A stretch of 62,828 nucleotides of DNA, filler included, from Malassezia furfur (GCA_052055015.1; 4 parts of 4 records of this genome joined end to end with filler, not necessarily neighbours in it); one strand, 5' to 3'; shown: positions 1,929-53,899, numbered from the whole stretch's first letter. Notes: a model not told the origin generated them from the letters alone. Program-made: numbers and translations.

Positions 1929-4504
1929 CTACAACTTCCACTGCGACGTGGACGAGGCACCGGCGCCCGGCGCCGCCGCACGGCCCTTGGCGTCGCGCTT
2001 GCCCGACACGGCCTGCTTGACGCTCTGCCGCTTGCTGTCCTTGCCGACCACCGACACGCCCTTGTTGCCCAGCAGGCTCTTGAGCGCCTCGTCTTTTTGC
2101 GCCTTGACCGCCGGCCGCGGCGCACCGCCGTTGCGCGCAATCGCCTCCTCGGCGCGCTTGATGCGCTCGTTGCGCTTCCGCTTCGCCTGCCGCAGCTGGT
2201 TGTGCTGCCGGCGCTTGTCCGCGGACGACATCTCGCTCTTGGCGCCCGCCATCGCCGGCGCGTGCGACGACGCGGCATACACCTCCTCGGGCGCCAGCAT
2301 CGTGCCGGCCGACATGGTCGTCGGCAGCGCCGACTCCATCGCGATCGACGGCGTGTTCGACACCGTCTCGATCGCCGCCTTGGGCGCCTTCGGCGTGTAG
2401 TGCGCATTGCTCAGCGCATCCAGCTTGTTGAACAGGCTCTCCAGGTCCCGCGAAATCGCCTGGTGCTCGCGCGCAAGCTTCGCATCGCTCTCGGACGCCG
2501 GCGCATCCGCCGCATCGCCGCGCGCCGCTTGGTACTCGTCCTCGTACAGCTCCGCAAGGCTCTTGTGGCTCTTGGCGTCCGACAGGTCGAGCAGCTTCGC
2601 CGAGGTGAACGGCAGCGCATCGAGATCACGCTGCCGGATCACATCGTCATAGTGCCGGTCGAGGATGCGCCGCTTGATCATCGCCTCGATGCCCTCGTTG
2701 TGCTCCTGCGTGGCCACCGGCGTGGTCTTTGCACTCCGGTCGAACTCCAGGTCCTCTTCCAGCAGGCTGTCGACGGGGCGCGCGCGGGACGACGCCTCGC
2801 CCATCAGCGTCCAGTCCTTGGCCTGCACATTTTCGTCCTCGTACCGCGCAATTTCGTCGCGCAGCTCCTGCTGTCGCCGCTCGTATGCAGAAAGGTAGTC
2901 GCCCTCGGGCTCGGGCTCGTCGGCAAACAGGTCGCCAGCCACGCGCGTCGCGGTCGCATCCGCCTGGGCGTCGTCGCTCTGCTCCGACTCGGAGGCATCC
3001 TCCTCCATCGGGTCCATCGCCGCCTCCTCTTCCTCGTGGTCCTCGTCTTCCTCGTCCTCCTCGTCCTCCTCCTCGTCTTCTTCGTCCTCGTCCTCGTCCT
3101 CCTCGTCCTCCTCGTCCTCCCCGTCCTCCCCGTCCTCCTCCTCGTCCATGTCGACACGCCCATCGGCGCCATGGTCGACGGCAATCTCGTCCTCCACCTC
3201 TTCCTCCTCGTCCTCATCGTCACTGTCGCTCTCGCTGTCGTCGTCGTCGCCCGCGCCAATTAGCCCGGAAATCTGGCCGCGTGGCCTCGCCTTCTTGATC
3301 GGACGCACACGCACTTGGTCGTGGAAGCGCACACTCGTCTTGCGCTCCGGCTCCGCAGGCGGCGCCGGCGCTGGCGCACGCTCCTTGCGCTGCGCCTTGG
3401 GCGCCTTCTTGGGGGGGTCGAAGAAGTCGGAGTACATAATGTCGGCGCCGGACATGTCCTCGTCGTCCTCCTCCTCTTCGCTCTCGTCGTCTTCGTGATC
3501 GACCGAGGCAAAGAGGTCGATCCCATCGTCGTCCTCCTCCTCGTCTTCCCCAGACAGGTTGGCACGCGACGTCGATCCCTGGCGCTCGGCCGCCTCGGTC
3601 CGCCGGTTGAACTCGTCAATGGAAAAGAAGCCGTCGTCCAGCGTCGGATGCCGCCGCTGGCGCGACGTCGACGTCTCTTCCGGCTCGTCCTCGAGCTGGT
3701 CCAAGAGACTCTTGGACGCACGGCCGTCGTCGCCGTCCTCGTCACTGTCGTCGCTGCCTTCGCCGCCGTCTTCTTGCTCCATCAGCGCCTGGAAGAGCGC
3801 AGGGTCGCTCACATTGTACATGTTCATCATTTCGGCGCGCTCCTTCTCTGCCTTGCGCTTCTGCTGCTCCTCCTCGGAGTGCAGCGGCTCATAAAACACC
3901 TCGTCGGGGTCCACGTCGCTCAGGTCCGACGCACCAGGGAAGCCCTCGTCTGCACTGTCGCTCTCTTCGTCCTCCCATTCGTCGTCGCTGCCCTCGTCGT
4001 CGGGTGCTCCCACCGAGTCCGCCAGGACATCGTCGTCCGACGACGAAGTCTCCTCGTCGTCGTCGTCGTCCTCACCCACGGCACTCGACATCACTTTTTC
4101 CAGGACTTTGGACAGCTTCGCCGTGCGCAGCTCAAGCTGCTGCCACACCTGCTCGTTCTCCATGCCGTCCAACACCAGTTGGTCCAGCGCCGTCGCTGGG
4201 AAGAGCGGATGCGCGGCATCTTCCTCGCCGCGCTTGCGCTTCTGTGCACCGCCGCTCGCCCTTGGCTCCACCGACTGGAGCAGCGACGAAATATACGGGA
4301 GCGAGCTCTTTTCTTGCGCCACGCCTGTGTCAGACGACCCAACGTACCTTGGTCAAAGAGCGCTTTGGTGGCCTGTTTCGCAGCAGCTTGCGTCTCGGCG
4401 TCGCCGATCGCGAGCACATGCGGCGCCTCTTGGATATGCTCTACAAGCGACTGCGCCTGCAGCGGAGGCTGTCGCTCTACGGCCGCCGACTCTGCTCTCG
4501 CCAT
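1929..4504 (-). CDS. MPP10: U3 snoRNP / SSU processome protein Mpp10; 2 exons, 23-nt intron at 4325-4347
   Basis: Motifs EQVWQQLELR, DDGFFSIDEFN, IMYSDFFDPP, WTLMGEASSRARPVDSLLEEDLEFD, KSLAELYEDEY, LFNKLDALSNAHYTPK, LAPEEVY. Intron GTACGTTGGGTCGTCTGACACAG joins LFDQG to VAQEK in frame. Confidence 0.95.
3028..3147 (-). repeat. Low-complexity acidic (GAG/GAC, Glu/Asp) codon repeat inside MPP10
   Basis: Runs of TCCTCGTCC on the + strand encode DEEEDGEDGEDEEDEEDEDEDEEDEEEDEEDEEDEDHEEEE. Confidence 0.8.
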
Positions 4505-4557
4505 CGCAACCGCCGTACGATCGAATCACGAACCAACGTCGCGAAATATTTTAACGG

Positions 4558-5043
4558 TCACGTGCCGGGTCCGGGGGAGGCCGACGAAGACGCTTCCTCC
4601 CAGGGCTTCTTGGGCCGCTCGAGCGTCGACGTGCTCGGCGCGCTCTCGTTGATCTTGAGAGGGATGTCGCGCACGCCAGGGATCTTGTCCTCTTGACCCG
4701 TAGCAATCAGCTCGACAATCGCATTGAAGGACGCAGGGTACTGCTCCACCGGCTCGGACGCCGCGGGCTGGGCCTCTGCTTCGCCAGGGGTTGCAGAGGC
4801 CGGTTCCGTGGATGCGGAAGCGCCCTGCGTCTGTGCTCTGCATCAGTCAACAACAACGCACTTGTGCTCGTAGTAAAACTGGCGCGCCTGCGCAACCGTC
4901 GCTTTGATCTCCTCTTCAGGCACACCTTGCTCAATCATAGGCGCAATAATGGCTTGGATACCTTGCTGCACGGTGAGACAGGGTGCATTACCTACCTGGA
5001 GCTCGGCATCGTCCGGCACACTCGTGGACCCCGCAACGCTCAT
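4558..5043 (-). CDS. PEX39: KPWE-domain protein (PEX39 / C6orf226-like peroxin); 3 exons, introns 4966-4995 (30 nt) and 4838-4861 (24 nt)
   Basis: Spliced product has the N-terminal helical motif DDAELQQGIQAII...QARQFYYEH and the C-terminal YPASFNAIVELIATGQEDKIPGVRDIP...RPKKPWE, matching the fungal KPWE-domain family as I recall it. Intron 2 carries an in-frame TGA. Confidence 0.72.
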
Positions 5044-5111: not shown

Positions 5112-6650
5112 ATGAGCGAAGAGGCGGCCACGGAACGGCTGGCGCCGCCAGAGAGTGCCGCGCCTGAAATGGCCCCTGCTACAGCACAGCAGGAGCCGAG
5201 CACACACCAAAATGGCCACGGTCCAGCGACGGCGCCCGACAATGAGCATCTCCGGCGACGCGTTCTCTACGTATCGGCGAACCAACCGGCGCTCCTGCGC
5301 CTTCCTTCTGGCATGACGAAGCAGGTCGTCCTGGAGCCCGGGAAAACGGTGTCGATTGGCAAGTTTGGCTCCTTTGCTGCCGACGACGTGATTGGGCGCC
5401 CTTATGGCCCAACGTACGAAATCCAGGCCGACGGCCACCTGGAAATCATGCACCAAGACGTGGCCGAAGCACTGAGTACGTCTCCCTCTCTTACACCGCA
5501 GCCGAGAACGAGGCCACAAATGAAAACATATTTGACGATGGCGAGTCGCAGTCGCTCTCGTACGAAGACATCAAGGCGCTCAAAGAGGCGGGCGCGACTG
5601 GGCGCGTACGTTTGGCAACGCTCACACAGGAAATCATCCAAAAACAGCTCGAGGGGAACAAGAGCTACGACTTGCGGACAACGTACAGCCGCGACAAGAT
5701 CATGAAGCGCAAAGAGGCGAAACACCTGAAATTCTTTACGCCGCTGCCTCCAGACCTCAACAACGTGGCATGGTACAACTTTGAGCGGCACCCCGACAAG
5801 ATTCGCTGGCTCCGGCCCGATGCGCTCTCGCAGCTGCTGTCATTTGCAGACGTGCGTGCGGGTGGGAAGTACTTGGTCGTCGACGGCGTCGGTGGCCTGC
5901 TCACGGGTGCGATCCTCGAACGCATGGGCGGTACGTTTCGGAGGCTGACAGCAGGGAGCGGATCGGTGCATTTGATCCACGACGCAGACTCGCCCCCGGC
6001 CTTGGAGTTGCTGCCTCTATTTAATCTTACGCCATACCACACCCGCCATGTGTTGCACACGATGCACTGGGCTGCCACCGAGGGCCGCTGGACTTTGCGT
6101 ACGTCTTTTCCTTAACGCAGCGTCGCATATGGCCGACGAACTTGCGCGCGTGTACAAGACAGACCGCGAGCGCAACCGCGCGAGGAAAAAGCGTGCAGGT
6201 ATCGAAGAGTTTGTGGCCACACGCCAGCAATTCTTCGACGGCGAGTTTGACGGGTGCGTCGAAGCGACTCACGCAGCGCCATCATTGCGTGCCCCTATGA
6301 GCCCTATTCGGTAATCCACCGGTTTTTGCCTTATCTGGCTGGCTCGTCCAACATTGCTGTGCACAGCCCACAGCTGCAGGTACGTCGCCCTACTAAGACA
6401 GCCCCTGGTGGAAACCCAAGCGCGGCTGCGTGCGAATCCCAGCTTCATCAACGTCTCTATCACCGAGCCGTGGCTCCGGCGGTACCAGGTGTTGCCGGCA
6501 CGAACTCATCCAGACATGTCGACGTCGGCCAGCGGCGGGTACATCCTACATGCCGTGCGCATTCTCAGCGACGACGTTGAGATCGACGAAAAGGGCACAC
6601 CCGAGGCGCCCCCTTCGCCCCTTCCCACCGACGCTGCGCCGGAGGCCTAA
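5112..6650 (+). CDS. TRM6: tRNA (adenine(58)-N1)-methyltransferase non-catalytic subunit; 7 exons, introns 5476-5501, 5606-5629, 5931-5954, 6099-6120, 6254-6276, 6380-6401
   Basis: Motifs VSIGKFGSFAADDVIGRPYGPTYEI, NENIFDDGESQSLSYEDIKALK, LRPDALSQLLSFADV, EPWLRRYQVLPARTHPDMSTSASGGYIL. Six GT-AG introns of 22-26 nt give one continuous frame. Confidence 0.93.
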
Positions 6651-6895: not shown

Positions 6896-8053
6896 ATGCC
6901 CCTGCCCAGCTTGCGCCACGTCACGGGGACGTCCGATGCGGTTCTTGAGCGCATGCTCACGGCCTTTGGAACCAGTCCCCCCACTACGGACGGCACCCTG
7001 GGCGCAGAGTCAGACAGGGCTTCGCTGGTGTCGGATTCCGAGTCCCTCTCGGACGAAGACGAGTGGATGCCCGAGGCGCGTTCGACAAAGAACCCCGAAC
7101 CGTACGTTATTCACCGTCCGTTCGATTTTGCGACTTTTCACCGCAGCCTGCCGTCTTTGAAACAGTCCAATTCGCTCCGGAGGAAGCACAGTGCGAAGCG
7201 CTCGCAGCCGCCCGGCGCGGCTCGCTCGCACAGCGCCATGCCGAGTGGCACGACTCCCCCTGCGCAGGACCCGCAGGGCTCGGGGGGCAAGGTCTCACTG
7301 ATCCAGCGGCTAACCAATGGCGAGTCGCGGCGCCAGCGCCGCCGCCAGGTCAAGCTGCGCCATTTCCACGGCCGAGTCTTGGGCGTGTTGCACGGCGTGC
7401 CGGACCCGATCTGCCCTGACGAGATCGGGACACCCGCGGTATCCCGCGGTCTCGGCAAAGAGGGACTTGCCCCGTGCGAACCACCCGAGGCTCTCTCTGG
7501 CGCCACAATGAACCAGACACCGCTGGAGCGGCCCATGACGCCGCTGTGTACCAAGATCGCGCGGTCGCAATCCCTGCGGTCTATGCCGCCGCGTCGCAAG
7601 CCCGTACCGCGACTCATCTCCCACAACCGCGCCGAGAGCGAACCCACGCCCTACGGGGAAGCGAGCCATGTGCCTTCCCTTCCGCGACGCGCATCACACC
7701 AGTCGCTGACCGTGCGACCCAGTAACCAACCGCCCCCGCGGCCACCCAAGAGTGCGCTGCGGAGGATGGCCACCGTGTTCCGGCCATCGCCTGTGGTCGC
7801 CACGATGTACGACCCGTCCTGTGCCGTGGGGATCCACTCCTACGAGTTGTCTTCGTCGGCCAGCTTCGATGCACACGATTGCGAAGCGCCACCGCTGGAC
7901 TCGGACCATTCGGACACGGACGATACCGACAGTGCGCCGGACACGATGTACTCCCGCGTACCCGTGCAGTCCTTCTACGGGATGCAGAGTGCCACCAAGA
8001 ACATCGAGACGATGCCCCCCTTCCTTGCCCCGCCCATGAATGTGCCTCGGTAG
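6896..8053 (+). CDS. Hypothetical Ser/Pro/Arg-rich, probably disordered protein
   Basis: Open frame of about 385 codons from ATG 6896 filling an otherwise unexplained gap in a gene-dense genome. Pro-rich motifs RRKPVP and PPPRPPKSALR; no recognised domain. Confidence 0.6.
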   Translation: MPLPSLRHVTGTSDAVLERMLTAFGTSPPTTDGTLGAESDRASLVSDSESLSDEDEWMPEARSTKNPEPYVIHRPFDFATFHRSLPSLKQSNSLRRKHSAKRSQPPGAARSHSAMPSGTTPPAQDPQGSGGKVSLIQRLTNGESRRQRRRQVKLRHFHGRVLGVLHGVPDPICPDEIGTPAVSRGLGKEGLAPCEPPEALSGATMNQTPLERPMTPLCTKIARSQSLRSMPPRRKPVPRLISHNRAESEPTPYGEASHVPSLPRRASHQSLTVRPSNQPPPRPPKSALRRMATVFRPSPVVATMYDPSCAVGIHSYELSSSASFDAHDCEAPPLDSDHSDTDDTDSAPDTMYSRVPVQSFYGMQSATKNIETMPPFLAPPMNVPR

Positions 8054-9214: not shown

Positions 9215-11032
9215 ATGGCGAGCCTGCTGCGCTGGAGCACCTGCGTGGTGAGTCGCGTGCGGCCTGCGCGAGCGCCGAGCGCGCTGTGCGCGGTGCGGCA
9301 CATGAGCACGGAGCATGGGCGTGCCGACTGGCCCGCGATACCCCCCGTGTCGGTCGACGAGCCGAACCAGCTCACGAAGCTGGTGTCCGACGCGCTGCAG
9401 CTGCCGCGTTTCGCGGTCGACTCGGCGTCGGTGGTGCGTATCGAGACGCCGCGCCAGTTCTATGGGCTGCTCAAGACCAAAATCCTGCAGGCGAAGCACC
9501 GCATCTTCCTCTCGACCCTGTACGTCGGCAAGGAGGAGCGCGAGCTGGCGCGTTATCTGTGCGAGGCGCTGTCGAAGCGCCCCGAGCTGCAGGTCACCAT
9601 CCTCATGGATGCGATGCGCGCGACGCGCGAGTCGCCCAAGAGCGTGTCGAGCGCGTCGCTGCTCGTGCACCTCGCGGGGATGTTCCCGGACCAGGTGGAC
9701 ATCCGCCTGTATGCGACGCCGCTGCTGCGGCCCAACAGCACCAAGGCGCGCATCATCGGCAAGCGCTTCAACGAGGGCTTTGGGCTGCAGCACATGAAGG
9801 TGTACGGCTTCGACGACGACGTGATCATCACGGGCGCCAACCTTTCGCGCGACTACTTCACGCGCCGCAAGGACCGCTACATGATGATCCGCCGGCACGC
9901 GTTCCTCGCCGACTACCTCCATGCACTCATCCTGCTCGTGAGCCGCTTCAGCTATGCGCTGCGCTACAACGGCGACGCCGCCGAGCTGCGCAAGATGATC
10001 CAGGCGATGCCCGAGCTCGACGACTCCTCGGACGAGTACCTCGCGCTGTGCCACTCGCCGTTCCTGCTCGAGTGGGACGGCGGCGCGAACCTCTTGTCCG
10101 TCGAGGACACCGACGGGACGATCAGCTCCGCGGGCCTCTGGCACGACATCCAGTCGTTCCCGGAGCGCAACTGGGCCACCAAGGCGACCAAGGCCCTGCA
10201 CGAGTTCACCGCGCGCTGGTACGAGCGCACGCAGGACACGAGCGGCGCTCCGCCGCAGCACGCACCCCCACGCAACGCCGACACCTTCATTGTGCCTCTG
10301 CTGCAGATCGGCCAGCTGAACGTCACACAGGAGGCCGACATGATACCCTATCTCAGCCGATACCTCGGCGCCCTCCAGCGCACGGCGGAAAGCGCCGCAG
10401 AGGAGCCACCGTACGCCATCGTGGACATCACGTCCGGCTACTTTAGTCTCGCGGGGGTGTACAAGTCGCTCGTCTTCTCCCGAGAGCTCCACGCGCTCGC
10501 CCAGGACCCGGACCGCATCCCGGTCGCCTTCCGGCTCGTCGCGGCGTCGCCCGAGGCCAACGGGTTCTTTGGGAGCAAGGGGATCAGCGGGCGCATCCCG
10601 CACGCCTACACCTACCTCGAGCGCCAGTTCTGGGAGCAGGTCGTCCAGCGCGGCCTCCACAAGCCCGTGCGCAACAGCGCCGAAGCGGCCGAGGCCGACC
10701 CCACGCCGACGATCGAGCTCCGCGAGTGGCGCAAGTACGGCTGGACCTACCACCAAAAAGGTGTGTGGATCACGCCCCCGGGCACCACGCTCCCGTCCAC
10801 GACGCTCATCGGGTCGTCCAACTACGGCATGCGCTCCGAAAACTTCGATGTGGAGTGCTCGCTCCTGATGACGACCCAGTCGCGCCCGCTGCGCCGCCTG
10901 CTCGAGGCCGAAGTAGAGGACATGCGCGACGACGCCCGCGACGTGATGGACTTGCAGGCGTTCAATGCGCCGGACCGCAAGGTCGACCTCATCACGCGCA
11001 TCCTCACGCGTCTCGTCCGGTACATGCTGTAG
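9215..11032 (+). CDS. PGS1: CDP-diacylglycerol--glycerol-3-phosphate 3-phosphatidyltransferase (mitochondrial PGP synthase)
   Basis: Motifs IFLSTLYVG, RFNEGFGLQHMKVYGFDDDVIITGANLSRDYF, ASPEANGFFGSKG, GWTYHQKGVW, IGSSNYG. Basic N-terminus resembling a mitochondrial presequence. Confidence 0.95.
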   Translation: MASLLRWSTCVVSRVRPARAPSALCAVRHMSTEHGRADWPAIPPVSVDEPNQLTKLVSDALQLPRFAVDSASVVRIETPRQFYGLLKTKILQAKHRIFLSTLYVGKEERELARYLCEALSKRPELQVTILMDAMRATRESPKSVSSASLLVHLAGMFPDQVDIRLYATPLLRPNSTKARIIGKRFNEGFGLQHMKVYGFDDDVIITGANLSRDYFTRRKDRYMMIRRHAFLADYLHALILLVSRFSYALRYNGDAAELRKMIQAMPELDDSSDEYLALCHSPFLLEWDGGANLLSVEDTDGTISSAGLWHDIQSFPERNWATKATKALHEFTARWYERTQDTSGAPPQHAPPRNADTFIVPLLQIGQLNVTQEADMIPYLSRYLGALQRTAESAAEEPPYAIVDITSGYFSLAGVYKSLVFSRELHALAQDPDRIPVAFRLVAASPEANGFFGSKGISGRIPHAYTYLERQFWEQVVQRGLHKPVRNSAEAAEADPTPTIELREWRKYGWTYHQKGVWITPPGTTLPSTTLIGSSNYGMRSENFDVECSLLMTTQSRPLRRLLEAEVEDMRDDARDVMDLQAFNAPDRKVDLITRILTRLVRYML

Positions 11033-11089: not shown

Positions 11090-12245
11090 ATGCCGCGACG
11101 CGTGCGCCGCCGCCGGCAGCAGGAGGACGACGACGGCGAGCCGATCACCGTGTCGCAGTCGGAACGTGAGGCGTTCGATGCAGAGCTCTCCGAGCGCGTC
11201 TCGCGCTGGTCCGAGGCGTACTCAGATAGTACGTCACTCTGCTCATGCAGTCGTCGAACAGCTCCCGATGGAGCTGCTACGCACGTTTGACCTCATGAAG
11301 GAGCTCGACCGCCAGTCGGAAGGTACGCACCGCGCGCCTCACACAGACGAGAAAGCAGAGATCGACGTGCTATGGAAGCAATACTGCGCAGCGCGGCACT
11401 GCGGGCCGCTCGCCGCCGAGGCACTAGCAGAGGTCAAGCAGGAGGAAGCGCGCGACGACGCGGGCGGCTCGGGGCGCGGCGCAGCAGCAGAGGCGGCCGG
11501 CTCTTCTGAAGCTGCGGCCGACGCGGCGGCGGAGCGCCACGACCTGCTCCTGCGCCTCTCCACGCGCGCGCAAAGCACCGTGTCGATCGGCGACGAGAAA
11601 CTCGCGCTGGCCGTCGCCGCCTACGACTCGGTCGATCGGCACATCCGCCGCCTCGATGCCGACCTGCTCAAGAACGAGCGCAGCCTGCACGCGGGCCTCC
11701 GCGAGGAGCTCGCGGGCAAATCGGCCGGCGACGGCACAACGACGGCCCTGCCGCTCGCGAGCGACCGCTTCTCGCCCGACGGCCAGCTGCTCACGTTCTG
11801 GAGCGGGCTCGTGCACCTCGATACGCTCACCTGCCTGGCCTATCTCAAAGAGCACCTCGCCAAGGAGGCCGCGGCCGCCGACGCGCGGCCAGCCAAGGGG
11901 CGGCACAAGCGCACCGCGTCGCAACAGAGCACCTCGAACGCGGAGCCCGCGGGGATGACGCGCTTCGCCGAGACCGAGGTGGACCCGAGCGAGCCGCGCT
12001 ACTGCTATTGCGACCGCGTGTCGTACGGCGAGATGGTCGCGTGCGACAACGACGACTGTCCCCGCGAATGGGTACGTTTTCTACGCTCACATCAGTTCCA
12101 CTATGCGTGTGTGGGCCTCGAGCACCCCCCCAAGGGGCACTGGTACTGCCAGTTCTGTGCGCCGCCGCACTGGAAGGGGCCCGGCACGCGCGTGCCTGAC
12201 GACGCGCCGATTCGGCCCCCGAAACGCGTCGCGACGCGTGCTTAA
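11090..12245 (+). CDS. ING-family PHD-finger chromatin protein (Yng/Pho23-like); introns 11229-11250, 11323-11346, 12072-12095
   Basis: ING N-terminal motifs VEQLPMELLRTFDLMKELD and DEKLALAVAAYDSVDRHIRRLDADL. PHD finger EPRYCYCDRVSYGEMVACDNDDCPREW/FHYACVGL...WYCQFC after removing a 24-nt intron. Confidence 0.92.
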
Positions 12246-12289
12246 TAATTTGTAGAATAGACGCGCCGCGCCGCACGCGCCCCGCGACC

Positions 12290-15681: not shown

Positions 15682-15781
15682 NNNNNNNNNNNNNNNNNNN
15701 NNNNNNNNNNNNNNNNNNNNNNNNNTTAATTAATTAANNNNNNNNNNNNNNNNNNNNNNNNNNNNNNNNNNNNNNNNNNNN
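15682..15781. other. Artificial contig-joining spacer (44 N + TTAATTAATTAA + 44 N)
   Basis: Six-frame stop linker flanked by N runs; the same 100-bp structure occurs three times. Confidence 0.97.
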
Positions 15782-42007: not shown

Positions 42008-43975
42008 ATGAGCGCGGCGCTCTCCCAAAAGCACGGGCATGCATCAAAAAAGACCGCGGCGGGGCGGCGGCAGCAGGGCGTGGTCAAGTCGCGCGGCATC
42101 CAGAAGGCGCCCGGGCGCGTCCAGCTGTGTGCCTTCTGCCTCGGCTCCGAAGAAGAAAACCGCGTCACGAAGCAGCCCGAGAAGCTCGTGATGTGCACCG
42201 AGTGCGGCAGCTGTGGTACGTTTTGGACACTGACACAGGCCACCCGTCATGCATGCGCTGGGACGCGGCGGGGAAAAAGGCAGCCATCGTGGAGACGTAC
42301 GACTGGCATTGCATGGAGTGCAAGACGTGTGAAGTGTGCCTTGACAAGGGCGACGACGAGCAGATCATGTTCTGCGACCAGTGCGACCGCGGCTGGCACT
42401 TGTACTGCCTGCGCCCGCCCCTCGCAAAACCTCCGCGTGGCATGTGGTATTGCCCGACATGCCAACAGGCGTCGACGCCGAAGCCGGCCAAGGGAAAGGC
42501 CGCACGTACGCCGCCTGCGCCGCGCGCAAATGAGTCGCCGCGGCCAGGCACGGTCGTGCGGCTACGCCGGCCAACGAAGGAGACGCGTCCGCGAAAGCGC
42601 ATCAAGGTTATGGAGCTGGAGGAAGAGGACGACGACGAGGAGGAAGAAGAGAGCGACGACGATGCCACAGCGGCGCCGGCTGAGGACGACGAACCATTTG
42701 CGGGGCTGCTGACCGGCGACGATGCCTTGACACACCTCAACGATCCCAACGCCGACGACATTGCGCGCTTCCGCAGTAGCAAACGCGCCGCCGAGGAGCA
42801 ATTGGGCGGCGCGGTGAGTATGCAGTCAGGCGCACTGGCGAGGCTGCCCCCGCGGGCGCAGTCGGTGGTGCGCGAGGAGCGGTTCACGAGCCCTGCGAGC
42901 ACGCACACGGACGACTCGCACGGCACGGCAACGAGCGACGCCAGCGTCGCACAGCCGGTGCGGATGATCCGATTCGGCAAGTTCGACATTGATACCTGGT
43001 TCCAGGCGCCGTTCCCCGAAGAGTACAGCTCAGTGCCCGGCGGGCGCCTGTGGATGTGCGAATTCTGCCTTAAGTACATGAAAAGCCGGTTCATGGCGAC
43101 GCGGCACCGGCTCAAATGCATCATGAGCTACCCACCCGGCCAGGAGATTTACCGCGCGGACAACATCTCGGTCTTCGAGGTGGACGGCAGCAAGGCCAAA
43201 ATCTACTGCCAAAACCTGTGCTTACTCGCCAAGCTGTTCCTCGACCACAAGACGCTCTACTATGATGTGGAACCCTTCCTGTTCTACGTGTTTGTCGAGA
43301 GCGACGCAACCGGCTCCCACTTCGTCGGCTACTTCTCAAAAGAGAAGCGCAGTCCAATGGACTACAACGTAAGCTGCATCATGACCCTGCCCGTGCACCA
43401 GCGGCGGGGATGGGGCTACTTTCTGATCGCCATGAGCTACCTGCTCTCACGCAAAGAGAAGCGGCTTGGCTCGCCGGAGAAGCCGCTGTCGGATCTCGGC
43501 TTCCTGACGTACCGCAGCTACTGGACGCTGGCAGTGTACCGCGTGCTGGCAAGTGCCTCGGATACGCTCACGCTCGAAGGTAGGTTGCGCGACTCACCCA
43601 GATCTTTGCGAGACGACGGGCATGAAAATGGAGGACGTGCTGTATACCCTGCAAGACCGCCACATGCTCGAGACCTTCCACAACGGCACGGAGCATGGGC
43701 GCCTCCCGCCTCAGTTCTTTACTGCTGCCGAGCACAATGCGAAGCCGGCGCGGCGGAGCACATCGGTGGAGCCGGTGGTGAACGACTACCGCCTCGTGTT
43801 TGACCACGCCGAGGTCCAGGCGTACGTCGACCGACACGACGCGAAAGCATACGTGCGCCTCGACCCCAGCAAGCTGCGCTGGACGCCCTTTTTGCTGACG
43901 CGACCGCGCGCAGCGCTCGACACGACCGACGCGGCCGCCTCGCTCGTAGAGCACGAGGCCAAGCCTCAGATGTAA
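42008..43975 (+). CDS. MYST histone acetyltransferase with N-terminal double PHD finger (Sas3/Mst2/KAT6-like); introns 42216-42238 and 43580-43601
   Basis: Double PHD: CAFC...[12 protein letters not shown]...[12 protein letters not shown]...[14 protein letters not shown]...[73 protein letters not shown]. Confidence 0.93.
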
Positions 43976-43990: not shown

Positions 43991-44729
43991 CTATGCATGC
44001 CGCTCTCCCTCGAGCTCCATGGCATCCGGTGCGGGCGGCGCCGGCGACGCTTGCGCCGCGTCGTCGGACGCGGCTGCGTGCGATGCCGACATGTCGACAC
44101 TCTCGTCCATCGCAGTCTCATCGTCGTCCACGGCGTCAGTCGCGACGTCGAGCGTGGTGTCGGCATCGGTCGCGACGTCGAGTGTGGTGTCGGCGTCGGC
44201 GTCGCCGGCCTTGGCACTCGCCGCCTTGGCGCGCTTCTCAGCACGATTGCGAGCCGCATTGTCTGCCTTGGCCGCCGCCGACTTTTTCTGGAGCGCGCGG
44301 TATGCCTCGAGCTGCTCGCGCAGCTCCTTGCGCATCGGTGCCGGGAAGTCGAGCTCGCGAAGCGCGTCGAGGACGTGTGCGGCCGAGATGGTCTTATTGC
44401 CGCGTGCGATGGCAACGTCGTGCGAGGCCGCGGCTGCGTTAGCCAGCATACGTACTCAGATAGCTCACGAACACGGAAGACGACTTGACGAGCGCTGCGA
44501 GCGAGTCCTTGCGCAGCTGCACCGAGTCGGGCAGCTCGCTGCGCGCGAGCTTCTGGATCGACGCCTTGGGCAACTCAAACTGGTCGATGCCCATGCCAAA
44601 GGTGCCGCCCGCAGCGTTCGTCGCGGTCATGGTCTTGGCCGAGAGCGGAATGTCTTCGCGCGGCGACTCGGCGTTGGAGTCGTGCGGCGCCGGCGCCGGC
44701 ACAGCGTCTTGCACGGGGGCCGCGTCCAT
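43991..44729 (-). CDS. DPB4: Histone-fold protein Dpb4/POLE3/CHRAC17; intron 44434-44455 (22 nt)
   Basis: Spliced histone fold GIDQFELPKASIQKLARSELPDSVQLRKDSLAALVKSSSVFVSYL/TAASHDVAIARGNKTISAAHVLDALRELDF, followed by an acidic tail. Confidence 0.9.
44131..44199 (-). repeat. About 2.3 copies of a 30-bp in-frame tandem repeat in the DPB4 acidic tail (DADTTLDVAT)
   Basis: GTCGCGACGTCGAGCGTGGTGTCGGCATCG followed by GTCGCGACGTCGAGTGTGGTGTCGGCGTCG. Confidence 0.85.
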
Positions 44730-44790: not shown

Positions 44791-46174
44791 CTATGGCGCC
44801 CACACCTTGACGCTCAGGTCCACCGACCCCGTTGCGACGACGTTGACGGATGCCGCCGTCGCCGACGGCTCCTCAGACGTCTGTACGCTGCCTCTGCCCC
44901 ATGCGACGCATGTCGCAAAGTGGCTGTGGCAGTCGACCACTTTGAGACACCGCCCGCTGCTCACGTCCCACACGCGCATGGTTTTGTCGTCGCTCACCGA
45001 CACCAGGTGCTTGCCGCTCGGCGAAAAGACCAACGCACGTACCCAATTATCGTGTCCAGACTGGGTAAGTGATACACGTACCAGCACGCGCAGGCATTGC
45101 CCTTGCTGGCTCCATAGCCGAATCGTCTTGTCCCGTGACCCCGACGCAAGAAACTGGCCGGGCTGCGTCGCAGTGGGGTCGTCCTTCGGCACGCGGATTC
45201 CCGCGAGCGCGCGGATTGCGGGATAGGCAGACACGGGCGCAAATGCAACGCACTCGACGACGTGCTCGTGCCCGCGCAGCTCGTGCCGCACTTCGCCGGT
45301 CTGTGCGTCCCAGATGCGGACGGTTTGGTCGCTCGAGCCGCTCGCAAGCGAGCGTGCGTCATCGGCCACGGCGACGGCACGCACCCAGTCATCGTGTCCG
45401 TGCAGCGTCTTGACGCAAAACCTGGGTCAGTGGTGTGCCGACGCACCCGGTCGCCGTTTCCCAGATTCGCAGGGTCTTGTCGCGGCTCGCCGATACCAAG
45501 TGTCGGTCGCCCGGGAGAAAGCGAATGCACGACACGCTGTGTTCGTGCCCGTACATGGTGCGCACGTTCTTCCAGCCTTGCGTGGCGTCCCAGAGCTTGA
45601 TGCTGAGGTCGGATGCACACGACCCTGGGTGAGTGCATTCCACGTACCGAGGTACTGTCCGCTGTGGTCGAACTCGATGTTCTGCACCGGTTTGGTATGC
45701 CCTTTGAGTGTCTGCTCCAACTCCCCCGTTTCCCAATCGTACAGCTTGATGGTGGTGTCCTCGCTGGCGGACGCCAGCTGGCTAAAGTGTGGGTGGAACG
45801 CGACGTCGGTCACCGGCTGCCGGTGCCCTGTGAGGACGTGCCGCGCGGGGTTGCGTGGGTACCAGTCCGCGACCGAGGCCCCCCGCCGCGCGCTCGGCGC
45901 ACTCTGGAGTTCCTGCTCCAGCTGGCGCACCTTGGCCTCGAGCTCAAGGTTCTGTGTGAGTGGAGGTGGTACCTGCCTTTTTCTGGAGGCGGATGGTGCT
46001 GAGCCACTTCTTCTCGAGGAGCGCCGCGTACTTGCCCTTCGGATCCGGCACGTATGACTCAAGATTGGTATCGTGTGCGAGCGCATCATACGCCGCGCGA
46101 AACTCCGACTGCGCGAAGTACTCGAGCAACGCGCGGTGCAGCTCGTCGCGCTGCCGCTCCGACAGCGCGCTCAT
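44791..46174 (-). CDS. PAC1: Dynein regulator LIS1/NudF/Pac1; introns 45952-45976 (GC-AG), 45625-45647, 45422-45446, 45061-45081
   Basis: LisH N-terminus [41 protein letters not shown], and WD40 repeats ([56 protein letters not shown]). Confidence 0.95.
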
Positions 46175-46229: not shown

Positions 46230-47142
46230 ATGGCAACGCCGGCGCGGAGTCGCGTGGGCGGTGTGCCCGAGGCGACGTCGACGGCCGTGCAGGTCGCCGT
46301 GCGCATCCGACCAGACTCGGTCGAGGATACGGGGCGGTCGGTGCCGCGGCCGCTGCGCACCGTTGTGAGCCAGACGTCGCCGACGACGCTTGTGGTCGAG
46401 CCGAGTGCGCTGCCCTCGACGGTGCCGCCGCGCGACCAGCGGCACGCGTTCACGTTTGACCGCGTGTTTGCGCCGCATGCACAGCAGCACGACGTGTATA
46501 CTTCGTGCGTCGAGCCGCTGCTGCACCGCTTCCTGGACGGGTACAACACGACGATCTTTGCGTACGGCCAAACGTCCAGCGGCAAGTCGTACTCGATGGG
46601 CACGTCCGAGGCGAGCGAGGCGCTCAGTCCAGATGACGCGCTGGCGAACACGCTTGATGAGAGCATCGGCATCATCCCGCGCGCAGCCGTCGAGCTGTTT
46701 GCGCTGCTCAAGGAGGACGCAGAATACACCCTGACCACGAGCTTCCTCGAGCTGTACAACGAGGACCTAATCGACCTGCTCGCCGACCCTGACGTGGATG
46801 CACCCAACCAGGTGCAAATCCGCGAGACGCGCGCGGGCGAGATCGTCTGGATGGGCCTGCGCCAGCGCCCAGCCAAGTGCGCCGCCGACGTCGTTCAGTT
46901 GCTCCAGGACGGTATGATGATCCGCCAGACGCACGAAACGGAGATGAACACACAGTCCTCACGTTCACACGCCATCTTCTCACTCACACTCACGCGGCGG
47001 CGCCCGCGGCAGGCGTCGCGCGCCGCAAGCCCCGAAAAGGTGCCAGCGACGCCCTCGACGCCGCTCGCGTCGAAGCGCAGCTCCGGGCTGCCGCTGCCCG
47101 GCCGCGGCAAGAGCCTCGCGCGCGCTGCGACACCGACGCAGC
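46230..47142 (+). CDS. Kinesin motor domain (kinesin-4/KIF21-like), 3'-truncated by the gap
   Basis: Motifs AVQVAVRIRP, FTFDRVF, GYNTTIFAYGQTSSGKSYSMG, GIIPRA, SFLELYNEDLIDLL, RQTHETEMNTQSSRSHAIF. Confidence 0.9.
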
Positions 47143-47242
47143 NNNNNNNNNNNNNNNNNNNNNNNNNNNNNNNNNNNNNNNNNNNNTTAATTAATTAANN
47201 NNNNNNNNNNNNNNNNNNNNNNNNNNNNNNNNNNNNNNNNNN
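47143..47242. other. Artificial contig-joining spacer
   Basis: 44 N + TTAATTAATTAA + 44 N. Confidence 0.97.
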
Positions 47243-48170: not shown

Positions 48171-49187
48171 TCACGCCGGCACATACGGCGGGCCCAACCA
48201 GCGGCGCGTCTGCTCGCTCACGGCCTCCACGACCAGTAGCAAGATGCCGCCGCCGGGCGCGAGGCGCAGCACCTTGGGCGCAAAGCCCTTGTACAGCGCA
48301 CGGAACCCCTCCTCGCGATAGATAAGCAGAATGCCCGTAAACGCGCCGCGGTACTTGGGCGTAACGCCCTTGACGCGGTCCACGTTCTGGATACGCGTCT
48401 TGACCACATCTGCGGGCGTGTTGAGCAGCGTGCCGACGAACCCGCCGACCGTGCCCGAGAGCAGGTTGTTGCGCATGCGCTCCCCGGCGGTGTGCGCCTT
48501 GGGCAGCACGCTCTGCATCTTGAAGATCGTCGCAAAGTATCCGCCGTTCCACAGGATGTGGCGCACCATGGTACTCCACAGGCCCGTGTACAGCCCCGTC
48601 CAGCCACACTGCTTCACGATTGTCCGCACCACATCCATCGGACCGTTGTAAAGGTGCGCCTGGCTGCGGTCCTGCAGGCGGATCTTGACCAGCTCAAACG
48701 GCACCACAATCAGCGACTCGGTCGCGCCCGCGGCACACCCCGTGAGCAGCGTCAGGCCCTGTGTCTTTTCTTTTTGGTTAAAGGCTTTGCGGAACGTCTT
48801 GCCCCAGAAGTCGTTCGCGCTGCACATGAGCACACACGACACCTACCCAAATTTCATCGCGCGTTTCGGCGCTTCCAGCACAAACAGCGGCCCAATTCCG
48901 CGGTACAGCCGCGAGACACTGCGTAAGCATACGATACACCCACCTCTCCTGCTGCATGATCTGCTTCAGCGTGTCCAAGGTGCCGCGATACTGCGGAGCA
49001 CTCGAATGGAGCTGCAGCTGCAGCCGCGTCTTGACCACATCTGCGATGAGCAGAGCACATACCCAGCGGATACAGACAGGCAAGCTCGACAATCCCGGCG
49101 AAAGCGCCCGCGCCGACCTGCACGTAGGTCGGGAGTGCTGCAACGTCAGTGCGTCCGGCAGCACCTACGCTTCACGTCGGTGGTCAT
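48171..49187 (-). CDS. ODC1: Mitochondrial 2-oxodicarboxylate carrier; introns 49138-49168, 49041-49062, 48919-48943, 48820-48846
   Basis: Spliced KPLPTYVQVGAGAFAGIVELACLYPLDVVKTRLQ, EAPKRAMKFG, VPFELVKIRLQ, RHILWNGGYF, NTPADVVKTRIQ, PKVLRLAPGGGILL (three carrier repeats). Confidence 0.93.
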
Positions 49188-50922: not shown

Positions 50923-51012
50923 ATGTCCTCATACACACCCTGTAGCCTGTTAATCTCCCCCATCGCCGCTCTTCCCCGCGGCGCTGCACCTCCACCTTTC
51001 TCCACCTTCGCC

Positions 51013-53014
51013 ATGGATGTCGGCAAGGCGGTCGCCGCATACATGGAGCGTATGGTCAAGGAGGTGCACGGCATGAAAATGCTGCTCCTTGACCAGTATA
51101 CGGTACGTTTTTTTGTTTGTTCATGAAGACGCCCACCATTTCTGCTTCGTTCACGCAGTCGGCCCTGCTGGAGAATGAAGTGTACCTCACCGACAAGCTT
51201 GAGAACGGCACGCGCGAGCGCATGCCGCATCTGCAGTGCATCGTATACGTGCGTCCGTGTGCCACGTCGATTCAGGCACTGTGTGACGAGCTGCAACACC
51301 CTCGCTACGGCTCGTACGCGCTGTGTATGTCACTCCGCTGACTCCAGACTTTAGCAACGTTGTTCCGAAGAATAGTATCGAGCAGCTCGCCGAGGCCGAC
51401 CAGCACCAACTCGTGCAGAACGTGCAGGAGTTCTTCACCGACTACGTCCCGGTCACTGCGTCGCTCTTCTCGCTGAATGAGTCGATTCCTCCGAGCGCAG
51501 TGTGGGGCAATGCCCTCACACAGTGGGACAGCGAGTCGTTTGCGCGGCACTCAGCGGGGCTCGTGTCGCTCCTGCTAAGCCTCAAGAAGAAGCCGGTAAT
51601 TCGGTATGAGCGCATGAGCGCGCTCGCCAAGAAACTCGCCGAGGACGTCACGTACCAAATGACCAACACGCAGGCGTCGCTCTTCGACTTCCGGCGCACC
51701 GATGTGCCACCGCTGCTCCTGATCCTCGACCGGCGCAACGACCCCGTGACACCGCTTCTGACGCAGTGGACGTATCAAGCGATGGTGCATGAGCTGATCG
51801 GTATCCACAACGGGCGCACGCAGCTTCCGCACGGCGAGGGCAAAGCAGAGGAGATTGTGCTGTCTGTGGACAATGACCCCTTCTTTGCGGCGAACTTGTA
51901 TGACAACTTTGGCGACCTGGGTGCGTCGATCAAGCAGTACGTCACACAATTCCAGTCGCGCTCGTCATCTGCGTCGTCGATCGAGACGATCCAAGACATG
52001 AAACGGTTCGTCGAAGAATACCCCGAGTTCCAGCGGCTGCGTGGCAACGTGTCGAAGCACGTTGCGCTCTTGGGGGAGCTCAGTCGGCTCGTGGAGGAGC
52101 GCGACCTGCTGCAGGTCAGCGAGCTCGAGCAGAGCCTCGCAAGCAACGAGAGCCACTCGTCCGACCTGCGCAACGTGCAGAACCTGCTCGGCTCGAACAA
52201 GATCGGGCATGACGCTAAGCTGCGCCTCGCCATTCTGTACGCGCTGCGCTATCAAAAGTGGTCCGGCAATCAGATTGACGCGGTGGTGCGCCAATTGATC
52301 AATGTCGGTGTCCCCGAGAACCAAGTCGTACTGGTGTATGTGATGCTCAACTTTGCGGGCGCCGAGCAGCGCCAGGACGACCTGTTTGCCAACGAGAACC
52401 TCTTTTCGCGCGGGAAGAGCGCGCTGAAGGGCCTCAAGGGGGTGGAAAACGTGTATACCCAGCACTCCCCGCATCTCCTCGAGACACTCGACCACCTGAT
52501 GCACGGTCGCTTGCGCACGTCGAGCTACCCCTTTGCCGACGTGGAGCCGACCGCGGCCGATGGTGCGCCCGCGACGCTCTTCCCTAGTGGGCCGACGACG
52601 CGGCCACAGGACGTGATTTTGTTTGTGATTGGCGGCACGACCTACGAGGAGGCGCGCAGCATCGCACTGCTCAACGGCGCGCCCTCGGGCAGCGGTGTGC
52701 CCTCGCAGCCGACCTGGCCGGGGACGCGTTTCCTCCTCGGCGGCACAACCGTCCACAACGCGCGCTCGTTTTTGGACATGGTGCAATACACCGCGTCGCG
52801 GCTGCCCACAAACATCACGCGCCCGCCGCCGTCGGTAGGCGACGCAGGCCTGCATCTGAGGCTAGGGCCAATGCAGCTCAACGTCGGTGCAGGGCATGCG
52901 CCCTCGCGCGAGCTCGGCGAAGGGCTCGGCGATGTGGCGAACAACGCGCGCGAGTTTGCCTCGGGGCTGTTTGGCCGCGTCATGCGTAGCGTCGACAACG
53001 CCTCGTTCCAATAG
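51013..53014 (+). CDS. VPS45: Sec1/Munc18 family protein Vps45; introns 51103-51128 and 51325-51347
   Basis: Motifs GMKMLLLD, TQSALLENEVYL, LSLKKKPVIRY, LLILDRRNDPVTPLLTQWTYQAMVHEL, NVSKHV, LKGVENVYTQH, IGGTTYEE. Confidence 0.96.
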
Positions 53015-53018
53015 CTAC

Positions 53019-53899
53019 CTACTCTTCTGCGGGATCTTCAAGTTGCCATGCGGGGATGGACGGCGCGGCGCGCGGCGCAGGGGGCGCCTTTTCACCCTCG
53101 TTCGTGTTCTCCGAGGAGGACGCGGGCTGCGCTGCCAGGCCGCCGCGCGACACGACCAACGAGCGCAGCGACTTGAGCTCGCCCTGCAGGTCAGTCAGTG
53201 CCGAAATCTGCGACTTGCGCGAGCGGTTCAGCATCGAGGTAAACTCTTCGCGCATCTCCTCGACCTCGGCTTTGACCTTTTCGAAGTCCTTCTCGCGCTG
53301 CTCTTCGCGAGTGCGAACCTGCTCGATCATCTCATTGACGCCTGCAACACTCTGCTGGATGGCCGTCTGGTGCTCGTCGAGGCCCTGGCGGATCGCCTCG
53401 GTGGTCTGGTCGAGCTCTTCGAGGTGGAGCGCGACCTCATCGTACTTGGCTGTAAGCTCGTCACGCTCGGCCTCGAGCACGGTCTGGTTCGGCGGCTGCA
53501 TGTGCGGGTACAGGTATCGCTGCGTGAGTTGTGCCGACATACTCGTGCGAGGCCAAAGAGACCATAACCAATCGTGCCGGACACCACGGCCATGATGAAC
53601 CAGTCACGCCAGTCGCGCCGCGGCGGTTGCACAGGTGGATATGCAGGCATCATGGGGTATGGGCTCGCGTACTGCGACGAAGAGGGCGCCCCTGGGGGGC
53701 GCGACGCCTGCGCAAGGGCCATGTCGACCTCCTGGGGCGTCAGCCCCTTGGACTCCAAGAAGCTGATCCGCTGCGAAATGGGAGAGTCTTGCACCTTGGG
53801 ATCGGCCAGGAATGACACCGCATTCTGGATCATCTCGGGACGCGGCATTGCGGGGACAGTTGCATGCCCCGGTGCGTCCGGCGCATTGGGATCCGCCAT
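53019..53899 (-). CDS. PEX14: Peroxisomal docking protein Pex14; intron 53520-53542
   Basis: Pex14_N motif AVSFLADPKVQDSPISQRISFLESKGLT, RDWRDWFIMAVVSG, coiled coil ELKSLRSL, tail PSIPAWQL. Confidence 0.95.

Follow-up and report, generated by a model that had tools for sequence, protein, structure and literature searches.

The window and its intron set

The DNA analyzed here, a stretch of 62,828 nucleotides from Malassezia furfur (the window), contains genes on both strands that are interrupted by predicted spliceosomal introns of only a few tens of bases. Three linkers, each consisting of N44, TTAATTAATTAA and N44 and forming a six-frame stop linker, occupy positions 15682-15781, 31418-31517 and 47143-47242; the window is therefore composed of four artificially joined pieces of ~15.6 kb, and adjacency in the genome is not implied. 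Genes at 15172-15681 (minus strand), 15782-16394 (minus strand) and 46230-47141 (plus strand) are truncated by these linkers. The G+C content of the window is 0.60-0.68. In protein comparisons, the first 587 residues of the MSH2 model match a deposited M. furfur protein at 99.7% identity, the TRM6 model shows 94.7% identity to that of M. brasiliensis and 94.2% to that of M. furfur, and the top matches are followed by other Malassezia and then by Ustilaginomycotina. Judged by its predicted proteins, the organism, a skin yeast, is a member of the Malassezia furfur complex.

Using frame views, and independently of an earlier list of introns, we curated a sample of 25 gene models containing 48 introns that range from 21 to 38 nt, with a median of 24 and a mean of 24.8. 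There are three introns of 21 nt, nine of 22, seven of 23, seven of 24, nine of 25, three each of 26 and 27, two each of 28 and 30, and one each of 31, 32 and 38 nt. A preliminary description of this DNA had claimed 49 introns, 47 of them between 21 and 38 nt, and its histogram is identical to ours except at 27 nt, where we count three rather than two; its two longer introns were not recovered. The six introns of 22-26 nt that it placed in TRM6 were found again in the independent models, as were its three 21-nt segments, each with the form GTACGT...CTNAY...YAG and an adenosine at nucleotide 16. A T-rich 45-nt candidate at 7102-7146 (plus strand; GTACGT...TTCAC...CAG), a multiple of three with no stop that is unverified, is possibly one of the two longer introns; the gene that holds it (6896-8053) is poorly conserved, and the orthologous loci described below gave no alignment there.

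The signals that define these introns occur together far more often than expected by chance. GTACGT is found at 60 sites on both strands (31 + 29), many of which have CTNAC and AG within ~20 nt. When a donor hexamer, YTNAY and the first AG within 12 nt were required, a scan yielded 40 hits of 21-28 nt, with 5.4 expected from Markov-1 shuffles, and five hits of 12-20 nt, with 4.1 expected. A second scan, in which a looser donor was combined with the branch box and the first AG and compared with the same null, gave 34 hits of 21-25 nt (4.9 expected), 10 of 26-30 nt (4.8 expected), seven of 31-40 nt (9.4 expected) and 31 of 41-80 nt (32.9 expected); at 10-20 nt, the six hits observed are at the chance level of 5.5. 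We also wrote a two-strand gene finder for the window that weighs splice signals and accepts introns down to 8 nt; it called 38 introns, all of them at least 21 nt long. The low-scoring introns that it proposed at 12238-12260, 37042-37081, 45983-46031, 46877-46907 and 23007-23078 correspond to gene boundaries or open coding sequence, and a 190-nt merge that it made in TRM6 is false. Gene finders that ignore splice signals proved too noisy, calling long false introns in which adjacent short introns had been fused with small exons.

The donor hexamers comprise 28 copies of GTACGT, seven of GTAGGT, five of GTGCGT, four of GTATGT, two of GTACGC and one each of GTGGGT and GCAGGT, in agreement with the preliminary description, which had named the first four and GTACGT as the most frequent. 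By position, the counts are G48, T47, A42/G6, C35/G9/T4, G48 and T46, such that G1 and G5 are invariant. The branch box reads R (42/48), C45, T48, N, A48 and C37/T10; every intron has a [CT]TNA[CTG] element whose A lies 5-8 nt from the 3′ end, and in 45 of the 48 there is exactly one branch-like box. CAG is the acceptor in 45 introns, and 47 use the AG nearest downstream of the putative branch adenosine, the exception (5931-5954) passing over an AG located 3 nt after it. These are the termini of U2-type introns: 47 are GT-AG and one is GC-AG (45952-45976, minus strand, in LIS1; the sole non-GT donor), with G at +5 in 48/48 and T at +6 in 46/48. None of the 48 donors begins with [AG]TATCC, as would U12-type introns, which are characterized by a [AG]TATCCTT donor and a TCCTTAAC branch box.

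The spacing of these signals is tightly bounded. The putative branch adenosine is nucleotide 16 in four introns, nucleotide 17 in ten, nucleotide 18 in eleven and further on in the remainder, and it is followed by 5 nt in 29 introns, 6 nt in six, 7 nt in seven and 8 nt in six, never fewer than five. The positions proposed earlier for the shortest introns hold: nucleotide 16 in all three of 21 nt, and nucleotide 17 in eight of the nine of 22 nt, if the CTAAG of 6380-6401 is counted, the exception being 49041-49062 (nucleotide 16). Between hexamer and pentamer there is a spacer of at least 6 nt, with a composition (C 0.35, T 0.19) equal to that of the window (C 0.33, T 0.17), which indicates that there is no pyrimidine tract. 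The usual absence of such a tract had been claimed before; there is neither pyrimidine enrichment in the spacer nor room for a tract. Overall, the introns are 59% G+C.

Reading frames and orthologous junctions

Removal of 33 of the 48 introns restores the frame in complete ATG-to-stop models; five more hold an in-frame stop, and the other ten are multiples of three without a stop. Support from homology or orthologous loci (solved-structure sequences, Pfam continuity, orthologues and four Malassezia loci) is available for about half of the introns, and all three 21-nt introns are independently supported. For Fis1, p24, myosin and Vps45, the Pfam match is exactly continuous across junctions; for Nop10, the carrier and the zinc-cluster gene, it is consistent with such continuity. 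The four orthologous loci (L001-L004) lie on metagenome contigs from other Malassezia, with a G+C content of 0.55-0.59 and synteny kept. At ten junctions an intron of 24-34 nt is present in at least one of these loci, and at the remaining junctions that they cover there is exactly no extra sequence; within the genus, intron positions are shared and presence is variable, several window introns being missing in relatives. For the stop-less segments beginning at 5606, 12072 and 45061, reading through produces gaps of exactly 8, 8 and 7 residues relative to solved-structure sequences. Across the ten stop-less introns, G/C occupies 41 of 83 "third positions" (49%), compared with 0.87 in exons (P 2e-16). 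The segments are non-coding, occur at conserved positions, carry the signals described above and obey the same bounds.

Individual introns are described below by donor, branch box and acceptor, with A18/5, for example, denoting a putative branch adenosine at nucleotide 18 followed by 5 nt, and with GC3 denoting G/C at third positions when an intron is read as coding. The Mpp10 gene (minus strand) contains a 23-nt intron (4325-4347; GTACGT...CTGAC...CAG, A18/5) that restores the frame; L003 carries a 26-nt intron at the identical codon, and L001, L002 and L004 are without exactly these bases. A small KPWE-domain gene, also on the minus strand, has an intron of 24 nt (4838-4861; GTGCGT...CTGAT...CAG, A19/5), a multiple of three whose retention would introduce an in-frame stop and of which exactly these bases are missing from L003 and L004, and another of 30 nt (4966-4995; GTAGGT...CTCAC...CAG, A22/8), a multiple of three with no in-frame stop that falls outside the orthologue coverage and has a weak GC3 of 5/10.

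The six introns of TRM6 are on the plus strand. Intron 1 (26 nt, 5476-5501; GTACGT...CTTAC...CAG, A18/8) has same-site counterparts in L003 (25 nt) and L004 (32 nt) and is exactly absent in L001 and L002. Reading through intron 2 (24 nt, 5606-5629; GTACGT...CTCAC...CAG, A19/5) opens an 8-residue gap relative to TRM6 of human (5ccb_B) and yeast (5eqj_A), and across its junction the Gcd10p profile passes from 122 to 124. Intron 3 (24 nt, 5931-5954; GTACGT...CTGAC...CAG, A18/6) is the one in which an AG 3 nt after the adenosine is skipped. All nine orthologues are gap-free at this junction, which establishes the second AG as the acceptor and rules out a 21-nt form; exactly these bases are missing from all four orthologous loci. 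Same-site introns also exist for intron 4 (22 nt, 6099-6120; GTACGT...TTAAC...CAG, A17/5; 24 nt in L003), intron 5 (23 nt, 6254-6276; GTGCGT...CTCAC...CAG, A18/5; 27 nt in L001 and 31 nt in L004) and intron 6 (22 nt, 6380-6401; GTACGT...CTAAG...CAG, A17/5; 34 nt in L001 and 30 nt in L004). A 21-nt GC-AG solution obtained heuristically for L002 at the sixth junction is distrusted, because the contig seems to contain a frameshift in that region. No insertion lies within 3 residues of a TRM6 junction in any of the nine orthologues, and the deposited M. brasiliensis TRM6 model, at 398 amino acids, equals the window model in length and junctions.

An ING-family gene on the plus strand contains three introns. 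The first (22 nt, 11229-11250; GTACGT...CTCAT...CAG, A17/5) restores the frame and has a 25-nt counterpart at the same site in L003. The second (24 nt, 11323-11346; GTACGC...CTCAC...CAG, A19/5) is a stop-less multiple of three, and L003 lacks exactly these bases. If the third (24 nt, 12072-12095; GTACGT...CTCAC...CAG, A18/6; GC3 2/8) is read through, both printed alignments show an 8-residue gap in the PHD finger, where EW is followed by FH, and the query stretch exceeds the chain stretch by 8 residues for 14 of the 20 chains listed and by 5-9 residues for the other six.

MSH2, which follows on the plus strand, also has three. Intron 1 (21 nt, 12345-12365; GTACGT...CTTAT...TAG, A16/5) is a stop-less multiple of three with G/C at one of seven third positions, compared with 0.94 in MSH2 exons (P 1.9e-7), and its 7 residues are missing from the model of the nearest relative, M. 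psittaci. The junction at intron 2 (25 nt, 14073-14097; GTACGT...CTCAC...CAG, A20/5) is gap-free in 8/8 orthologues, the deposited M. furfur model being excluded; L003 is without exactly these bases, and the MutS_V domain is recovered only once they are removed. At intron 3 (23 nt, 15117-15139; GTACGT...CTCAC...CAG, A18/5), six of eight orthologues are gap-free, the M. caprae model having a 9-residue insertion and that of M. vespertilionis being without the last exon. A 19-nt form of intron 3 breaks the frame. Both intron 2 and intron 3 have to be removed for the model to align with its orthologues and for MutS_V to be recovered. L003 possesses a further MSH2 intron (9311-9337; 27 nt, GTACGT...TTCAC...CAG) at a codon that is intron-less in the window.

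Four introns on the minus strand lie next to the first linker or beyond it. The gene cut by the linker at 15682 contains one of 28 nt (15412-15439; GTACGT...CTCAC...CAG, A21/7), which restores the frame and of which L003 lacks exactly these bases, and one of 30 nt (15535-15564; GTAGGT...CTGAC...CAG, A24/6), a stop-less multiple of three with an uninformative GC3 of 8/10. In a Zn2Cys6 factor gene, removal of a 25-nt intron (16305-16329; GTACGT...CTCAC...CAG, A18/7) re-forms the C-X2-C of the zinc cluster, exon 1 corresponding to positions 2-22 of the Zn_clus profile. The 27-nt intron of an Sds3-like gene (19733-19759; GTAGGT...CTTAC...CAG, A19/8) is a stop-less multiple of three in proline-rich surroundings (GC3 6/9).

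The longest intron of the set, at 38 nt, restores the frame of an NDUFA5-like gene on the plus strand (20326-20363; GTACGT...CTAAC...CAG, A31/7). Downstream on the same strand, a NOSIP-like gene has introns of 26 nt (20753-20778; GTATGT...TTCAT...TAG, A19/7) and 25 nt (20915-20939; GTGCGT...CTGAT...CAG, A17/8). The conserved N-terminus is correctly joined only by the 26-nt form of the former; a 20-nt form would add two columns that are empty in 23/23 aligned orthologues, two of which start just downstream. At the latter, orthologues are gap-free, except for P0194 with a 9-residue insertion. Fis1, on the minus strand, contains intron 1 (28 nt, 21995-22022; GTACGC...CTCAC...CAG, A22/6) and intron 3 (25 nt, 21768-21792; GTACGT...CTGAC...CAG, A18/7), both of which restore the frame, and intron 2 (22 nt, 21871-21892; GTACGT...CTTAT...CAG, A17/5), at whose junction the Fis1_TPR_C profile passes from 24 to 27 over a split codon and one residue. 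Frame is likewise restored by removal of a 22-nt intron from a PX-domain gene (22744-22765, plus strand; GTAGGT...CTGAC...CAG, A17/5) and of a 32-nt intron from the clathrin heavy chain gene (28657-28688, minus strand; GTACGT...CTCAC...CAG, A24/8). The 27-nt intron of a proteasome AAA ATPase gene (29063-29089, plus strand; GTGCGT...CTGAC...CAG, A20/7) would place a stop in frame if retained; this form, which uses the first AG, is preferred to a 36-nt alternative, though not proven.

Beyond the second linker, the 22-nt intron of Nop10 (31760-31781, minus strand; GTACGT...CTCAC...CAG, A17/5) follows a first exon of six codons, and residue 2 of exon 2 corresponds to Nop10p profile position 9. A p24/GOLD gene on the plus strand has two introns, of which the first (24 nt, 32187-32210; GTACGT...CTCAC...CAG, A19/5) is a stop-less multiple of three whose removal agrees with profile spacing to one residue (GC3 4/8 vs 0.89), and the second (25 nt, 32406-32430; GTACGT...CTGAC...CAG, A20/5) marks a junction where the EMP24_GP25L profile passes from 148 to 150 over a split codon. 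The 21-nt intron of the CREG-like gene (34019-34039, plus strand; GTACGT...CTGAT...CAG, A16/5) would bring a TGA into frame if retained; its 7 residues are absent from six of nine aligned relatives, with two others starting downstream and one, a near-identical open reading frame (ORF), reading through. A Cir_N-domain gene (37625-36879, minus strand) is interrupted by a 24-nt intron (37568-37591; GTACGT...CTCAC...CAG, A19/5) that would give an in-frame stop if retained. The next open frame on this strand (36937-34664) has its first ATG 58 nt upstream of the stop codon of the Cir_N-domain gene, so that at 36879-36937 (minus strand) either the genes overlap or the second begins at a later ATG. 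In a myosin gene, the Myosin_head profile passes from 29 to 30 across a 25-nt intron (38041-38065, plus strand; GTACGT...CTCAC...CAG, A20/5).

Frame-restoring introns of 23 nt (42216-42238; GTACGT...CTGAC...CAG, A18/5) and 22 nt (43580-43601; GTAGGT...CTCAC...CAG, A17/5) are the first and second of a MYST acetyltransferase gene on the plus strand, and another of 22 nt (44434-44455, minus strand; GTACGT...CTAAC...CAG, A17/5) belongs to the gene downstream of LIS1. LIS1 itself, on the minus strand, has four introns, and all four junctions are residue-exact on human LIS1 (8pqw_B): its exons correspond to residues 2-64, 66-164, 167-223 and 225-407, the three upstream junctions being exact when split codons are counted. 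The human numbering passes from 64 to 65 at the GC-AG intron 1 (25 nt, 45952-45976; GCAGGT...CTCAC...CAG, A20/5), from 165 to 167 over a split codon at intron 2 (23 nt, 45625-45647; GTACGT...CTCAC...CAG, A18/5) and from 223 to 225 over a split codon at intron 3 (25 nt, 45422-45446; GTGCGT...CTGAC...CAG, A20/5). Intron 4 (21 nt, 45061-45081; GTACGT...CTTAC...CAG, A16/5; GC3 2/7) is a stop-less multiple of three that, when read through, leaves a 7-residue gap in every printed WD40 alignment.

In the last of the four pieces, a mitochondrial carrier gene on the minus strand contains intron 1 (31 nt, 49138-49168; GTAGGT...CTGAC...CAG, A23/8) and intron 3 (25 nt, 48919-48943; GTGGGT...CTTAC...CAG, A20/5), which restore the frame, intron 4 (27 nt, 48820-48846; GTAGGT...CTCAT...CAG, A20/7), which would contribute an in-frame stop if retained, and intron 2 (22 nt, 49041-49062; GTATGT...CTCAT...CAG, A16/6), removal of which joins ...LYPL, D and VVKTRLQ, with exon 3 beginning at Mito_carr profile position 28. 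The 26-nt form of intron 1 in a Vps45/Sec1 gene (51103-51128, plus strand; GTACGT...TTCAT...AAG, A21/5) gives an open frame of 650 codons in which residue 2 of exon 2 is Sec1 profile position 11; a 56-nt form would delete 10 codons. At its 23-nt intron 2 (51325-51347; GTATGT...CTGAC...CAG, A17/6), the Sec1 profile passes from 72 to 75 over one residue and a split codon. Finally, a 23-nt intron restores the frame of the Pex14 gene (53520-53542, minus strand; GTATGT...CTCAC...CAG, A18/5). In the same piece, Rfam tRNA matches at 57298-57406 and 57641-57749 (plus strand) have equal scores, span 109 nt each and are 343 nt apart, and are probably two copies of a tRNA gene with an intron; neither is reported by ARAGORN in bacterial mode.

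Probable compaction, its proposed limits and the alternatives

We consider it probable, at roughly 80%, that these are ordinary major-type (U2-dependent) GT-AG introns that have been compacted almost to the minimum that their own splicing signals permit. Each would consist of three short, information-rich signals placed end to end, namely a GTACGT-like hexamer read by U1 and U6, an R-C-T-N-A-C box read by SF1 and then by U2, and the first AG at least 5 nt past the branch adenosine, with the 3′ site being picked by its nearness to the branch rather than by a tract. Splicing would then likely proceed by intron definition. Because length is the sum of two parts, 16 nt or more up to the branch adenosine and 5-8 nt beyond it, this arrangement accounts for a floor of 21 nt, a mode of 22-25 nt and the absence of a pyrimidine tract. 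Most simply, such shortness would be the end point of genome compaction through deletion bias, stopped at the minimal spacing that the spliceosome tolerates. We infer that the motif adenosine is the true branch point, that neither distance can fall below its bound and that the splicing machinery has not been altered.

Several points weigh against this interpretation. The lack of introns of 20 nt or fewer is only modestly significant with n = 48, as 4.5 would be expected from a normal fit (P 0.009) and 3.1 from a lognormal fit (P 0.04). The site at 12345 in MSH2 has 1-6 extra residues in seven of eight orthologues, such that 12345-12365 is likely, although not proven, to be an intron. The stop-less multiple-of-three introns 4966-4995, 15535-15564 and 19733-19759 are supported by motif alone, and some of the segments are translated as protein in deposited M. 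furfur models. Moreover, splicing, the branch point and a genome-wide minimum are here predictions from sequence rather than observations.

The modest significance of the floor leaves some room for the alternative that it is a sampling effect, in which lengths are right-skewed with a mode near 23 nt and rarer introns of 17-20 nt occur elsewhere in the genome. This is unlikely in our view, although it is the strongest of the competing explanations, given that only 48 introns from four ~15.6-kb pieces are available and that the fits predict 3.1-4.5 introns of 20 nt or fewer in such a sample. However, the onset at 21 nt that had been claimed for this DNA is confirmed and is abrupt, with counts of 0, 3 and 9 at 20, 21 and 22 nt, and both component distances have sharp minima of their own: 16 nt in four introns and then 17 nt in ten, and 5 nt in 29 introns but never less. 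In addition, an AG 3 nt after the adenosine is passed over in 5931-5954, the 12 orthologous introns that can be placed in other Malassezia measure 24-34 nt, and motif hits below 21 nt are about as numerous as chance predicts. All six such hits of 14-20 nt are accounted for, three lying inside longer introns, two on the strand opposite a coding exon (32126) and one, of 19 nt, in-frame coding sequence within the Fis1 reading frame (22183-22201).

A different explanation, advanced in the preliminary description, is that 16 + 5 nt constitutes the steric limit of a lineage-modified spliceosome in which U1/U6 and U2 engage almost abutting sites and U2AF-pyrimidine recognition may be dispensable. As little as 6 nt separates the donor hexamer from the branch pentamer, and 3 nt the pentamer from the AG, and pyrimidine enrichment is absent. 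Furthermore, the dominant donor GTACGT has C at +4, which pairs poorly with the canonical 5′ end of U1, making a co-adapted small nuclear RNA (snRNA) conceivable; a search of the window revealed no snRNA genes.

Comparison with two other systems makes such a modification improbable. In the ciliate Stentor coeruleus, introns of 15 or 16 nt have a branch adenosine at nucleotide 10 or 11 with 5 nt after it, and U2AF1 and U2AF2 homologues are present (PMC9505925, excerpt). These introns resemble those of the window in being uniformly tiny and GT-AG, with a fixed branch adenosine that leaves 5 nt and with no room for a pyrimidine tract; they differ in having 10-11 nt to the branch adenosine rather than at least 16, in being 76% AU rather than 59% G+C, and in a branch region without strong consensus, whereas the box in the window is strict. 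In the fungus Yarrowia lipolytica, the branch box and 3′ site are about one base apart (PMC2911113, excerpt), and this combined signal, CTAAC-N-CAG, leaves 5 nt after the adenosine, as in 29 of the 48 introns here, although Yarrowia introns are much longer, are compacted only in their 3′ half and have the donor GTGAGT. Because the 5-nt spacing is shared with both organisms, no Malassezia-specific change is needed to explain it, and because Stentor manages with 10 nt to the branch adenosine, 16 nt is not a general limit. Retention of U2AF1/U2AF2 homologues in Stentor and in myxozoans, both of which have tiny introns, likewise means that small size alone does not imply that U2AF is dispensable. 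What stands of the earlier proposal is thus the division into two bounded parts, at least 16 nt to the putative branch adenosine and 5-8 nt after it, and not the universality of the first. On this comparison, the 16-nt donor-to-branch minimum is the lineage-specific part, and the 5-nt branch-to-3′ spacing is a minimum found in unrelated lineages.

It has also to be considered that some of the stop-less multiple-of-three segments are coding, or are facultatively retained to yield isoforms 7-10 residues longer, as the frame stays open in 10 of 48 cases upon retention, the models P0001 (MSH2) and P0172 (CREG, from a near-identical strain) read such segments as protein, and multiples of three are not depleted (15/48), unlike in other tiny-intron genomes (PMC2911113, excerpt). 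A Paramecium-type bias is indeed lacking, in that neither multiples of three nor stop-less introns (10/48) show a deficit, in what is a small sample. Nonetheless, this is the least probable of the alternatives and a very unlikely one, since six of the ten segments are missing from orthologues or form exact gaps relative to solved-structure sequences, their pooled third positions are 49% G/C as opposed to 87% in exons, and a WD40 blade and the PHD finger would be broken.

Short introns in Malassezia and in other lineages

Taken as ordinary introns near their minimum size, the introns of the window extend a trait that is already known for the genus. A review notes the "very short introns" of Malassezia genes (PMC7426719), M. 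sympodialis has 5350 introns with a mean of 30 bp, 99% of them supported by RNA-seq (PMC5389616), and in M. restricta the mean and median are 37.2 and 30.0, with annotators using minimum intron lengths of 20 and 15 (PMC9241646, PMC6473144). The statement in the preliminary description that Malassezia is known for short introns is therefore true and, in view of the M. sympodialis data, understates the literature. Both species share with the window their genus, gene-dense genomes of 7-9 Mb and GT-AG introns of a few tens of bases, and differ in that the mean of 30 bp in M. sympodialis and the median of 30 bp in M. restricta exceed the mean of 24.8 and median of 24 found here. The window thus provides a sharper description of the trait, at the short extreme of the genus. 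The commonest intron length seems to vary from one Malassezia species to another: motif hits concentrate at 21-25 nt in the window, at 21-29 nt in L003 and at 29-34 nt in L004. A fungal intron survey covers M. sympodialis, and the excerpt available does not name Malassezia among its intron-length extremes (PMC8476143); our literature search found no published minimum intron length, branch-box consensus or branch-to-3′ spacing for the genus.

Elsewhere among eukaryotes, a 2026 paper names ciliates, Microsporidia and dicyemids as the exceptions below ~30 bp and adds myxozoans, with a median of 22 bp in two of them (PMC13644364; cf. PMC5014332). These lineages resemble the window in their medians in the low 20s (22 bp in myxozoans, ~25 bp in Paramecium), GT-AG introns and compact genomes, but counter-selection of stop-less multiple-of-three introns is reported for them and is not seen here (10/48). 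They are, moreover, mostly parasites or ciliates, whereas Malassezia is a culturable and transformable basidiomycete yeast. The genus is absent from the text of the 2026 paper on introns <30 bp, as far as its excerpt extends, which suggests that it is under-used as a model.

Introns this short escape ORF-based callers, and a fifth of them leave the frame unbroken, as the public gene models illustrate. The deposited M. furfur MSH2 model P0001 (960 aa; window 12290-15172) reads through all three introns, is in the wrong frame from the second of them to the third, and carries no recorded MutS_V domain; in the deposited TRM6 model P0122 (360 aa; window 5313-6650), stretches around five of six junctions are missing. 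Other models have insertions of 7-9 residues at or near intron positions: VRCVITDLE in P0010 (M. caprae MSH2), QCTVLTH in P0007 (Malassezia sp. MSH2), VRPLYLLTQ in P0194 (a NOSIP relative) and GMWHADA in P0172 (CREG, near-identical strain). By their residues, these look like retained stop-less introns, because V-R is compatible with translation of a GTNCGN donor, and T-D or L-T with that of a CTGAC or CTAAC box. Annotation of the clade consequently needs a minimum intron length below 21 nt together with RNA evidence.

The intron set described here offers a clean fungal example in which intron length splits into two separately bounded distances. That the branch-to-3′ bound is the same in Stentor and Yarrowia points to a general spliceosomal minimum, and the 16-nt bound from the 5′ end to the branch, which varies between lineages, is the part worth explaining. 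We think it rather doubtful, though conceivable, that the intron set of the M. furfur group is the shortest among free-living fungi, governed by a hard limit of at least 16 plus at least 5 nt and served by co-adapted machinery, for example a U1 matched to GUACGU or an SF1/U2AF that operates without a tract. Were this true, a culturable and transformable yeast would become a tractable model for minimal intron size, and stop-less multiple-of-three introns would account for many of the faulty public gene models of the clade.

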